Positions 3,866 to 5,299 of a stretch of DNA of 5,756 nt are shown here, in pieces. The stretch lies in the IMG/VR virus record IMGVR_UViG_3300045988_017492; one strand, written 5' to 3'. The position numbers and the translations under genes are program-made. Every line of letters begins with the position of its first letter. Positions within the stretch are counted from its first letter, which is position 1. The notes beneath the pieces were generated by a model. It ran no database searches. It was not told the DNA's origin and was given only the letters and a program-made list of their open reading frames with translations. This DNA is from a virus.

Positions 3866-3967
3866 TTACAGTCGGATGCCGCCCCTCATGGGCTTTTGGC
3901 TGAGGTTAATTGTTTTGGTCTTGCGTGCCGTCACGTTGAACATTCGGCGATCTTTTGCGCCGTTCAT
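3866..3967 (-). CDS. 33-aa highly basic peptide, ORF8/J-like putative DNA-binding (packaging) protein; not in the ORF track
   Basis: Hand translation of the minus strand gives ATG(3967..3965) MNGAKDRRMFNVTARKTKTINLSQKPMRGGIRL TAA(3868..3866). Nine of 33 residues are K/R. The C-terminal RGGIRL and the F-x-x-TA-x-KT-x-x-IN core resemble the small basic ORF8 proteins of gokushoviruses (compare the SpV4 ORF8 ending ...PRGGRRF, recalled from memory). The ATG lies 4 nt after the stop of the 74-aa ORF (TAAgaagATG), suggesting coupled reinitiation. Confidence 0.7.
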   Translation of the reverse strand: MNGAKDRRMFNVTARKTKTINLSQKPMRGGIRL

Positions 3968-3971
3968 CTTC

Positions 3972-4196
3972 TTACGATGCTGTGCCATTGCTGTACTCCC
4001 TTCTGATTAGTTCCATTTCGATTGCGTTTGCAAAACTTTTCATCCGCCATATTTCGTCAAGCATTTTTTTTGCGTCTTCGACGTTGGATATTTTGCGAAG
4101 CATTTTGTATTCGCCATCGATTTCTTTGTATTTTCGAGTTAGCAGCTTCTCAAGCACTTCTTTGGTCTGGTCTCTTACGTTCCATGTTTTGTGCAT
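3972..4196 (-). CDS. Hypothetical protein, 74 aa, predicted all-helical and charged; no family recognised
   Basis: ATG 4196..4194 is preceded by AAGGAG with a 9-nt spacer. That SD is embedded in the last codons of the upstream 40-aa ORF. The ORF fills the gap in the same-strand array exactly. Confidence 0.6.
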   Translation of the reverse strand: MHKTWNVRDQTKEVLEKLLTRKYKEIDGEYKMLRKISNVEDAKKMLDEIWRMKSFANAIEMELIRREYSNGTAS

Positions 4197-4326: not shown

Positions 4327-4719
4327 TTACACCCCCTTTCTGTATTTGTTGGGTCGTGTATCAACGTGCACCCAACTTGCGTAGACGATGATGCCGCAGC
4401 CAAATGGAATGATTTTGTTTAGTTTGTTGGCGATTTCCTTTGCGGTCATGCCTTCAATCCGGATGTCTGCTGCCATTCCTCGCATGTGATATGAGTACTT
4501 AGCACCGCCTACTTTTTTATTCCTTGCCGGTGTTCTGTATCCGCTGGTTATGTATACCGGCTTTCCGACTTGGTTTCTGAGAATATCCAAAATAGATACC
4601 AGATAGTCATCCACAAAAACTACCTGTGAACCATCCTGGCACGCAAATTCCCGCACTTTGAAGTGCTGCCCTATTTTTTCGTTTGCGTCTGTGTCCATGA
4701 TATAGCATTTGATTGCCAT
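4327..4719 (-). CDS. Zinc D,D-/L,D-peptidase of the M15 (LAS) superfamily, Peptidase_M15_3/YcbK-like; putative peptidoglycan hydrolase (endolysin), 130 aa
   Basis: The sequence contains ...FKVREFACQDGS...ITSGYRTPARNKKVGGAKYSYHMRGMAADI...WVHVD. It shows the SGYR-x-x-x-x-N-x-x-VGG block, an H-x6-D zinc-ligand pair (SYHMRGMAAD) and the distal VHVD histidine typical of M15A-type peptidases. The track start at 4728 is a GTG inside the SD. ATG 4719..4717 is preceded by GAGAGGTGA with a 5-nt spacer. No N-terminal signal peptide or TM segment is visible. Confidence 0.8.
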   Translation of the reverse strand: MAIKCYIMDTDANEKIGQHFKVREFACQDGSQVVFVDDYLVSILDILRNQVGKPVYITSGYRTPARNKKVGGAKYSYHMRGMAADIRIEGMTAKEIANKLNKIIPFGCGIIVYASWVHVDTRPNKYRKGV

Positions 4720-4743
4720 GGCGTTCACCTCTCTTCATTTTGG

Positions 4744-4772
4744 ATTTTACCATTTTTCTTGTCGCTTGTCAA
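4744..4772 (-). promoter_or_regulatory. Strong sigma-70/sigma-A-type promoter driving the whole gene array
   Basis: The minus strand reads ccaaaaaacaa-TTGACA-agcgacaagaaaaatgg-TAAAAT. The -35 element is a perfect TTGACA (4772..4767) and the spacer is exactly 17 nt. The -10 is TAAAAT (4749..4744) with an extended -10 TG (TGgTAAAAT). An A-rich UP-like tract lies upstream. The predicted TSS is near 4737, about 18 nt before the peptidase ATG. Confidence 0.7.
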
Positions 4773-4863
4773 TTGTTTTTTGGTTTGAATGGCGCTTTAG
4801 CGCCTTGCCGTGTGGAGCGCAGCGGAACTCGGCTTAATCCATTCATTTTTAGCGCTGTGCGCG

Positions 4864-5038
4864 TTTTCAACACTTTCAACATTTTCAACAGGTTTTCAAC
4901 ATAAAGTTGCACAATGATTTTCGTCATTTTGACGGACTTTCAACAATTCAACATTTTTTCCACAATTCTTTCAACAGTGTTTTTCGCTTGTTTTTAACGT
5001 TTTATCGTTATAAATTTATACTTTTCAACTTTTCCACA
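4864..5038. repeat. Array of ten same-orientation 9-mers, consensus yTTTCAACA (plus strand) = TGTTGAAAr (minus strand); iteron-like / DnaA-box-like
   Basis: Plus-strand copies are: 4864 TTTTCAACA, 4873 CTTTCAACA, 4882 TTTTCAACA, 4893 TTTTCAACA, 4937 CTTTCAACA, 4945 AATTCAACA, 4956 TTTTCCACA, 4968 CTTTCAACA, 5022 TTTTCAACT, 5030 TTTTCCACA. The first four are contiguous at 9/9/11-nt phasing. The two TTTTCCACA copies satisfy the relaxed DnaA-box consensus TTWTNCACA. Confidence 0.85.
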
Positions 5039-5072
5039 TACTCTACTACTACGTCTACAACAAGTTAATATA

Positions 5073-5119
5073 ATATACGCGCGCATGCGTGCGCGCTACG
5101 CGCGCGCGTGCGTGCGTAC
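5073..5119. repeat. 47-nt alternating purine-pyrimidine tract (CG/TG/CA-rich), Z-DNA-prone and hairpin-prone
   Basis: The tract atatacgcgcgcatgcgtgcgcgc|tacgcgcgcgcgtgcgtgcgtac alternates perfectly over 5073..5096 and 5097..5119, with one phase slip at 5096/5097. It contains a 7-bp hairpin (gcgcgca 5079..5085 with tgcgcgc 5090..5096), the 12-nt palindrome acgcgcgcgcgt (5098..5109), and an alternative 9-bp stem 5097..5105 with 5110..5118. Confidence 0.85.
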
Positions 5120-5124
5120 CGGCA

Positions 5125-5142
5125 GCCCCCTTGCTAGGGGGC
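5125..5142. other. Hairpin A1: GCCCCC-ttgcta-GGGGGC
   Basis: A 6-bp all-G:C stem (5125..5130 with 5137..5142) and a 6-nt loop. Confidence 0.75.
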
Positions 5143-5150
5143 GCTGACGG

Positions 5151-5183
5151 AAGGGGGTAGGCCGATAGGCCTACCCCCTTTTT
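5151..5183. other. Hairpin A2: 13-bp perfect stem AAGGGGGTAGGCC-gata-GGCCTACCCCCTT followed by T-run on the plus strand
   Basis: 5151..5163 pairs perfectly with 5168..5180 around the tetraloop gata. TTTTT at 5179..5183 follows on the plus strand only. Confidence 0.8.
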
Positions 5184-5226
5184 CGCTGATAACTGATTTA
5201 CATGGAGCTTTGAAGTCTATTTTCAT

Positions 5227-5243
5227 CCCCCCTTCTAGGGGGG
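5227..5243. other. Hairpin B1: CCCCCC-ttcta-GGGGGG (paralogue of A1)
   Basis: A 6-bp all-G:C stem (5227..5232 with 5238..5243). The loop ttcta compares with ttgcta in A1. Confidence 0.75.
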
Positions 5244-5256
5244 ATAATAGAGGGGT

Positions 5257-5289
5257 TAGCCCAGTGCTTACTTGATAGGTACTGGGCTA
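5257..5289. other. Hairpin B2: TAGCCCAGT ... ACTGGGCTA, 9-bp perfect stem extendable inward; starts 11 nt downstream of the Rep stop codon on the minus strand
   Basis: 5257..5265 pairs with 5281..5289. An inner extension (5267:5279, 5269:5277, 5270:5276) adds pairs, with two G:T pairs on the plus strand that become C:A mismatches on the minus strand. The lead-in GGGGTTAGCCC parallels GGGGGTAGGCC of A2. Confidence 0.75.
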
Positions 5290-5299
5290 GGTGACACCG

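Follow-up and report, generated by a model that had tools for sequence, protein, structure and literature searches.

In the textbook account, phages of the Microviridae replicate by a rolling circle that is nicked by Rep, with the origin inside the Rep gene. In phiX174 and G4 the viral-strand origin is a 30-bp sequence within gene A, and hairpins in intergenic DNA act as complementary-strand origins. Extrachromosomal replicons of another type, namely P1 oriR, F oriS, pSC101 and RK2 oriV, carry host DnaA boxes beside an AT-rich region and rely on long iterons bound by the plasmid Rep. To our knowledge, a DnaA-trio tract has been described for none of these four origins, and we know of no DnaA-box or trio module in phiX-type phages. 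The subject here is the non-coding block of a gokushovirus-type microvirus, IMG/VR record IMGVR_UViG_3300045988_017492, whose 5,756-nt stretch of DNA is referred to as the window. Like the plasmid origins, this block combines DnaA-type boxes with AT-rich DNA; its core (4863-5075) has the anatomy of the module that unwinds the bacterial chromosomal origin (oriC).

Modules of this kind, termed the basal unwinding system (BUS), are collected in Table S1 of Pelliciari 2021 (PMC8287927). Read 3'->5', they start with two DnaA boxes, after which come a gap of ~4 nt, the GAT trios and finally AT-rich DNA, and the B. subtilis module reads AATAGGTGT TTAGGTGT CCGG GATGATAATGAAGATGAT AAAAAATAT (Pelliciari 2021, PMC8287927). 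The search rules of that paper, which were applied here, allow the first box at most two mismatches to TTATCCACA and the second, co-oriented and within 3 bp of it, at most four. A spacer of ~4 bp (at most 16) is then followed by at least three consecutive NAN trios running 3'->5' away from the box.

An oriC-like module in the non-coding block

The genome has a single large non-coding block, between the Rep stop (5300) and the peptidase M15 gene, and an earlier note on this DNA had rightly put it at about one tenth of the genome (~10%). Its length is 580 nt if the peptidase starts at ATG 4719 and 571 nt if it starts at GTG 4728. Within it, the + strand at 5022-5077 reads TTTTCAAC-TTTTCCACA-TACT-CTA CTA CTA CGT CTA CAA CAA G-TTAATATAATATA. 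A box, a tandem box, a TACT gap, the trios GAT GAT GAT and an AT-rich run thus follow one another as in a BUS. The window contains TTWTNCACA-N4-CTACTACTA a single time, and 0/200 shuffles contain it. The chromosomal setting of a BUS, adjoining dnaA and dnaN, is absent, as the module sits between phage Rep and peptidase genes; given this phage-genome setting, it is a mimic or captured copy and not a chromosomal oriC. The element is a member-like copy of the known oriC unwinding module in an unexpected context.

Counts in relatives come from a scan of IMG/VR with the GTAG-tract pattern, which returned at least 120 loci, 116 of them microvirus genomes of 4-6 kb. The large scans list 120 matches each, and counts over 112-128 genomes refer to relatives among the matches listed. 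Three to six uninterrupted trios are present in all 112 genomes (of the 116) with a locatable proximal box. The gap from this box to the trios is 4 nt in 91/117 genomes and 3 nt in 20/117, and the two boxes of the pair are 8 nt apart, start to start, in 83/117 and 9 nt in 25/117. On the - strand of the window the GTAG tract GTAGACGTAGTAGTAG occupies 5043-5058 and the AT-rich sequence TATATTATATTAACTTG 5061-5077. The run TTAATATAATATA lies at 5065-5077, the GC content of the 30 nt at 5045-5074 is 27%, and the 33 nt past the trios in relatives have a mean of 68% AT vs 54% for whole genomes.

The ten TGTTGAAA repeats counted in the earlier note are borne out as six exact and four one-mismatch copies, co-oriented and all within 4865-5038. 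Six exact copies compare with 0.28 expected, a number reached in 0/200 shuffles. Read on the + strand, the repeats are TTTCAACA or TTTCCACA, a variant of the DnaA box. Boxes reach 16.2 per kb in the 450 nt beside the trios and 0.08 per kb in the remaining genome, while those of opposite orientation amount to 0.5 per kb inside the 450-nt region. Column conservation among relatives is at least 90% in the boxes and 40-70% in the spacers. At position 4 of the box, T is found in 713, G in 134 and C in 0 of 849 boxes. One relative (L012) carries TGTGGATAA and TGTTGATAA, the canonical box sequence, at equivalent positions.

The spacer between the two distal clusters (4902-4937) is itself conserved (CGTCAAAATGACG ... 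ATTGTGCAAC) and holds a small palindrome that is lost in some relatives. By analogy with the IHF/HU sites of oriC, it could be where an architectural protein binds. Between the trios and the AT-rich run lies the heptamer CTTGTTG (5058-5064, - strand), which keeps the 3-nt phase as TTG TTG TAG and is found in 11 of the 12 relatives retrieved by BLAST, L012 having TTTGTTG. A dif/XerCD site (two 11-bp arms, ATAA-N6-TTAT-type dyad) was considered for the AT-rich core and rejected, the dyad being present in 0/116 genomes. A search of IMG/VR for a BUS with the canonical box (TTATCCACA plus trios) gave 79 matches, of which one is a microvirus of different design, and a search of the plasmid database found the module on no plasmid.

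Conservation and orientation among relatives

The block alone, used as a BLAST query, matches 53 GenBank phage (gokushovirus) records. Relatives lacking the region and an assembly chimera were named in the earlier note as the observations that would count against it, and neither was encountered: the block is present in every complete relative examined. Two records that at first seemed to lack it are KX513876, where it lies between VP2 and Rep, and MG945219, a partial record that ends inside the trio tract. Its recurrence in these 53 GenBank records and in over 116 independently assembled genomes of IMG/VR shows that the block is real and conserved and not an assembly chimera.

The alignment of nearest relatives that the earlier note had proposed shows the blocks conserved and in the same order in 12 GenBank relatives; more widely this order is not obligatory. 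The architecture is therefore not strictly ordered, as had been claimed, since the central module is inverted or relocated in some relatives and several blocks are optional. The strand bearing the TAG trios is the coding strand in 89/116 genomes, the window included, and the non-coding strand in 27/116. In three genomes (L017, L066, L101) the segment 4863-5075 aligns inverted with both flanks collinear, which amounts to a clean in-place inversion, and in ~24 others the module lies between VP2 and Rep. To describe it as fused to the promoter was for this reason too strong.

The module is also set apart by composition, with 17-37% GC between blocks of 67-77% GC. An inverted repeat of 8-9 nt, TGTGCGCGT / ACGCGCGCA, at 4856-4864 and 5077-5085, brackets it exactly and may plausibly have served as substrate when the module was inverted in place. 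Since 27/116 genomes have the module the other way round with respect to their genes, its function is most likely that of double-stranded DNA and strand-neutral. Microvirus virions package the coding-sense strand. Presence in either orientation makes it unlikely that the module acts as a viral single-stranded DNA element, as RNA or as a fixed upstream promoter element, and a Rep nick inside it is probably not made. A resemblance to AACTTG was no longer taken to mark a nick site once the module had been found on both strands among relatives.

Correspondence with Clostridia chromosomal origins

Bacterial genomes, one representative per species, were scanned with three co-oriented TTTCAACA boxes as the query, without the trio tract. 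The array lies directly downstream of dnaA and co-oriented with it at 16 of the 120 listed loci (~0.06 by chance). Fourteen of these 16 dnaA-adjacent arrays, among the matches listed, are from Clostridia, mainly Oscillospiraceae or Ruminococcaceae, and Pfam places DnaA upstream and DnaN downstream of the array in L155, L170 and L186. Contamination of the bacterial matches by microvirus contigs was ruled out, with a VP1 homologue in 0/120 listed loci. The host origins mix TTTCAACA and TTTCCACA and, like the phage arrays, favour spacings of 9 and 11 nt and contain the GGT spacer. Just before dnaN comes their ending, box-box-(g/c)ccc-CTACTACTACTA (e.g. TTTCAACAgTTTCAACAccccCTACTACTACTACTA), and beyond it AT-rich DNA. 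The gccc gap is found in several phage relatives too, and the Anaerofilum locus (L204) has CTACTACTACGACTA in common with the most frequent phage variant.

Because the same arrays with the same ending stand between dnaA and dnaN in Clostridia, the repeats are read as DnaA boxes and the phage host is likely to be an Oscillospiraceae-type Clostridium. From its position and context, TTTCAACA is taken to be the origin-box dialect of this Clostridia group. The host assignment draws on this origin grammar, on expression signals (the promoter and ribosome-binding site are Firmicute-like) and on one distant prophage.

That prophage is a microvirus in a cultured Oscillospiraceae isolate, Pusillibacter faecalis (NZ_AP023421.1, ~3790-8900; L333), where it lies beside xerC; its VP1 is 42% identical. 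It has no box array and no trio tract. Another distant microvirus (IMGVR_UViG_3300010049_000390; L404), with VP1 38% identical, carries at 566-591 a perfect TTATCCACA inside a hairpin stem (TTATCCACAGGGC...GCCCTGTGG). This resembles a DnaA-box hairpin for priming on single-stranded DNA and may represent another mode of DnaA use.

The dnaA genes beside TTTCAACA arrays (L133-L250) encode the domain IV signature RDH-S-T(I/V) in 12/12 regular-expression matches, and NYSTV, NHATV or DHSTM is found in L167, L219, L225 and L229. In E. coli and B. subtilis the DnaA signature is RDH-T-T-V. The change from Thr to Ser at a base-contacting residue of DnaA might accompany the C6-to-A variant of the box.

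Elements flanking the module

The flanking elements keep their orientation and are separate from the module (Table 1). Every element listed in the earlier note was found again at the same position.

Table 1. Features of the non-coding block and its first downstream gene, with positions in the window.
Feature	Position	Strand	Remarks
Hairpin H1 (earlier B2, 5257-5289)	5257..5298	-	directly after Rep stop; invariant upstream GGTGTCAC; loop 5'-CTATCAAG
Hairpins B1, A2, A1 (three, G5/C5-type)	5216-5251, 5151-5180, 5122-5144	-	-11.9, -16.3, -10.2 kcal/mol; optional
Alternating purine-pyrimidine (CG/CA)n tract	5073..5119	.	runs 5073-5096 and 5097-5119 (24 + 23 = 47 nt), one phase slip
AT-rich element past trios	5061..5077	.	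candidate DNA unwinding element, read from sequence
DnaA-trio tract	5043..5064	-	- strand 5'-CTTGTTG TAG ACG TAG TAG TAG-3'; + strand CTACTACTACGTCTACAACAAG
Proximal DnaA box TTTTCCACA	5030..5038	+	9/9 to relaxed consensus TTWTNCACA; 1 mismatch to TTATCCACA
Upstream tandem box TTTTCAACT	5022..5030	+	3 mismatches; 8 nt start-to-start from proximal box
Distal box cluster I	4938..4976	+	TTTCAACA, ATTCAACA, TTTCCACA, TTTCAACA
Distal box cluster II	4865..4901	+	4 exact TTTCAACA, spacing 9, 9, 11 nt; includes 'box-ggt-box'
oriC-like module, 213 nt	4863..5075	.	two four-box distal clusters, proximal pair, trio tract, AT-rich end
GC-rich segment, three hairpins	4791..4862	-	4852-4862, 4807-4833, 4791-4804
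Promoter, sigma-70-type, TTGACA-17-TAAAAT with upstream TG	4772..4744	-	11/12 positions; then GAGAGGTGA ribosome-binding site, ATG 4719
Peptidase M15 gene	4728/4719..4327	-	

Hairpin H1 follows Rep in 100/128 genomes, with the upstream GTGTCA invariant and compensatory changes at 4/9 pairs of its stem. Genomes of the L033 type, in which Rep has moved, have a hairpin resembling H1 just upstream of the relocated gene. These features make H1 the best candidate for recognition or nicking by Rep. A CRESS-type (circular Rep-encoding single-stranded DNA virus) origin is a stem-loop whose loop holds a conserved nick motif and whose stem is flanked by Rep iterons; in H1 the stem covaries and the loop is conserved, and there are no repeats beside it. 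A similar hairpin (GGTGTCA, stem, ATCAAG loop) occurs on the non-coding strand of the Pusillibacter prophage, which calls for caution in regarding H1 as a nick site. Folded as - strand single-stranded DNA, the original B2 has -8.3 kcal/mol. The z-scores of the four hairpins against shuffles are -2.5 to -6.7, those of B1, A2 and A1 being -3.2 to -6.7, and the G5/C5 hairpins are found in 25/128 relatives.

The alternating purine-pyrimidine (Pu-Py) tract of 47 nt reported earlier is present as two strict runs. It occurs in 84/128 genomes and its orientation is unchanged when the module flips. The tract is no true palindrome: read on the coding strand, each arm is (CG/CA)n, and A outnumbers T in 88/90 genomes. 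In the window its fold has -25.3 kcal/mol on the + strand (z -3.5) and -18.7 kcal/mol on the - strand; a viral-strand hairpin was rejected, the - strand folding no better than shuffles (z = -0.2). In 89/90 genomes it is the complementary strand that gives the more stable hairpin (mean -21.7 vs -15.7 kcal/mol), through G.T wobbles. One possibility is that the tract is a Z-DNA-forming clamp selected against folding on the packaged strand.

The GC-rich segment holds two GCGCTAAA copies and, at 4791-4804, a GGCGC-ttta-GCGCC hairpin. Its central hairpin has three compensatory and no broken pairs in 20 sequences. The segment always lies upstream of the promoter and co-oriented with the genes, and is missing in many relatives. 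It may be a complementary-strand origin. At least three unrelated versions are found when L008-L012 are compared with 4779-4866 of the window, typified by GCGCACAGCGC, by GTCTGACGGA/GCGCCTGCGGGCGGGAG and by TCGTACGGCGCACC, which suggests cassettes that do one job and can replace each other. The promoter does match the consensus, as the earlier note had it, and has a TG extension. A search of the block with Rfam gave sub-threshold chance matches only (best 28 bits vs a gathering score of 100), and ARAGORN found no tRNA and no transfer-messenger RNA in it. A 52-amino-acid open reading frame (ORF) at 4927..4769 was dropped as coding, since indels among relatives are not multiples of 3.

Proposed function and alternatives

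On balance, the block is best read as a composite replication-control region in which the core would be a DnaA-dependent opening module that mimics the oriC of the host, with helicase loading as its likely use. The phage would thus probably borrow the host initiator DnaA. The setting would be the double-stranded replicative form. There, DnaA-ATP of the host would fill the ten co-oriented boxes of the TTTCAACA/TTTCCACA type, eight of them distal in two clusters and two in proximal tandem. From the proximal pair it would oligomerise over the 4-nt gap onto the TAG (3'-GAT-5') trios, and the adjacent AT-rich element, clamped between GC-rich flanks, would melt. The opened site would then load the host helicase, and the replicative form would be copied theta-type, as an oriC-type replicon, with the HUH Rep kept for single-strand production. 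H1 would serve for recognition or nicking by Rep and the GC-rich segment for starting the complementary strand, while the promoter would drive the gene block. The best-supported step in this scheme would be that host DnaA binds the arrays and, by way of the trios, opens the AT-rich end as it does at oriC; the purpose of that opening we infer.

Several observations weigh against helicase loading by a borrowed DnaA. The box TTTCAACA deviates at C6, a conserved position of the classical box, and its presumed identity as the DnaA box of Oscillospiraceae comes from position and context. Uninterrupted trios number three in the window, which is the minimum, the next one is degenerate across the phage relatives, and CTTGTTG was not found in the host origins examined. 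The majority of the IMG/VR relatives come from a single dataset. An intact rolling-circle Rep is retained, so that the need for another origin, of theta type, is not obvious, and the cell cycle normally restricts how often oriC-type origins fire, an odd constraint on a lytic phage. BLAST found no long alignable homology to any host oriC; direct capture of a host oriC was dropped as an explanation, the matches being of motif length (at most 29 nt), and with such matches the likeness may stem from capture or from convergence.

A bolder extension of helicase loading, which we advance tentatively, is that the replicative form is an oriC-type minichromosome. It would be fired by DnaA in step with the chromosome and inherited in the manner of a plasmid in Oscillospiraceae, with Rep reserved for virion DNA. 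If so, a non-integrative lysogeny or carrier state would follow, and the box dialect would reveal the hosts of uncultured microviruses.

A close rival of the helicase-loading reading, although unlikely in itself, is a rolling circle assisted by DnaA. Melting of the module would destabilise the nearby duplex, H1 would extrude and Rep would nick the viral strand. HUH Reps require a single-stranded substrate, and the AT-rich end faces H1 in 113/116 genomes and is directly abutted by it in L018-type and L033-type genomes. The covarying stem, invariant loop and upstream GTGTCA of H1, which always accompanies the Rep gene, fit the same idea. In the three genomes with an in-place inversion, however, the AT-rich end faces away from H1 and is ~270 nt off, and in the window 160 nt of 73-77% GC separate the two. 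A further difficulty is the strand on which the Pusillibacter prophage carries its H1-like element.

Use of the array as a sink or sensor, which titrates or senses DnaA without initiation and could so shut down initiation in the host, as datA or DnaA-box clusters do, or couple phage transcription to the DnaA status of the host, appears rather improbable. A role of DnaA in transcription is well established, as is regulation by clusters of its boxes. Ten boxes per genome would be multiplied by the copy number of the replicative form, and the arrays of the window lie ~90 nt upstream of the promoter. Neither position nor orientation relative to the promoter is conserved, however, and the best-conserved features, namely the trio tract, the fixed 4-nt gap and the AT-rich end, are ones that a sink would not need.

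The earlier note had compared the layout with a plasmid-type or CRESS-type origin, with the repeats as iterons that the phage Rep would bind. Direct repeats, an AT-rich element and hairpins do occur together beside the Rep gene, and this part of the idea, a replication-control region built of such elements, stands. The likeness to iteron plasmids and CRESS viruses does not, and binding of the repeats by Rep is very improbable. The same 8-9-nt boxes with the same spacing grammar fill dnaA-dnaN origins of Oscillospiraceae, where there is no phage Rep, and the repeat unit is not the 17-22 nt of an iteron. The sole initiator encoded is an HUH rolling-circle Rep (PF23343), and with respect to the viral strand the module is found both ways round. 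The GTAG tract reads as an array of DnaA-trios, with canonical gap and orientation beside a tandem box pair; as both boxes and trio array match, the closest analogue is the bacterial oriC unwinding module. Binding of another host regulator such as Spo0A, which phage phi29 uses via 0A boxes, is hardly credible: TGTTGAA is one base from the 0A box TGTCGAA and the two kinds of box overlap at the oriC of B. subtilis, but no 0A box was found in the block, position 4 of the TTTCAACA-type box is never C and in 134 of 849 boxes is the DnaA-type G, and the adjoining trio tract and gap are specific to DnaA.

Genome context

The ends of the window share a 99-nt terminal overlap, which gives a circular genome of 5,657 nt with all genes on the - strand of the window. 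Rep is a protein of 339 amino acids encoded across the circle junction; it belongs to the Pfam family PF23343 and contains an HUH motif and the two-tyrosine motif YVAGYVTKK. The - strand further encodes small ORFs including an ORF5-like protein, the scaffold VP3, the capsid F protein VP1 and VP2. A very basic 40-amino-acid ORF (MAQHRKKMNGAKDRRMFNVTARKTKTINLSQKPMRGGIRL) at 3866-3988 (- strand) resembles the J/VP8-like small DNA-binding packaging peptides and has no Pfam match. The closest GenBank records are gokushoviruses from the gut of humans, pigs and monkeys, with ~77-84% identity over the coding parts.

Implications

Full-text literature searches, of incomplete coverage, returned no paper that links Microviridae or gokushoviruses to DnaA boxes or trios and none on oriC-like DnaA boxes in a bacteriophage. 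Among publications naming both the DnaA-trio and phage, none concerns a phage-borne trio module as far as titles and abstracts tell. A conserved look-alike of oriC would mean that these phages recruit the master initiator of the host. It would offer a testable explanation for the long-term persistence of gokushoviruses in the gut, and a host clue (Oscillospiraceae) from sequence for very abundant gut phages that have no cultured host. A natural, minimal and portable unwinding module of ~210 nt would also be of use for the study of the DnaA mechanism and for vectors aimed at gut Clostridia that are hard to transform.

Comparison with known systems

Clusters for DnaA titration such as datA share with the module a dense array of boxes away from oriC, but have no trio tract with a fixed gap and no AT-rich unwinding end. 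The iteron plasmid origins differ from the window phage, which encodes no iteron-binding initiator and possesses a trio tract. With phiX174 and G4 the window phage shares the virus family, a two-tyrosine HUH Rep and intergenic hairpins that possibly have a complementary-strand role. It departs from them in that the origin CAACTTG^ATATTAATAAC has 0 matches at up to 3 mismatches and the origin-like elements lie outside Rep, so that the contrast with the phiX174 layout drawn in the earlier note holds.

The origins between dnaA and dnaN in Oscillospiraceae and Ruminococcaceae (L155, L161, L170, L186, L204, L234, L250 and others) resemble the module in their box variants and in the ending box-box-(g/c)ccc-CTACTACTA. 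They differ in having more boxes, some of them reversed (111 forward, 28 reverse), and have no alignable homology to it beyond the motifs.

The BUS of B. subtilis oriC (incC boxes 6/7; Richardson 2016/2019, Pelliciari 2021) and the module both have co-oriented tandem boxes 8 nt apart from start to start, a gap of ~4 nt and at least three 3'-GAT-5' trios on the same relative strand, with an AT-rich run beyond them and extra distal boxes. In contrast to the B. subtilis system, the module uses mostly TTTCAACA boxes, has a degenerate fourth trio and includes the added CTTGTTG. It is moreover invertible, and is located in a 5.7-kb single-stranded DNA phage beside the gene for a rolling-circle Rep instead of dnaA/dnaN.

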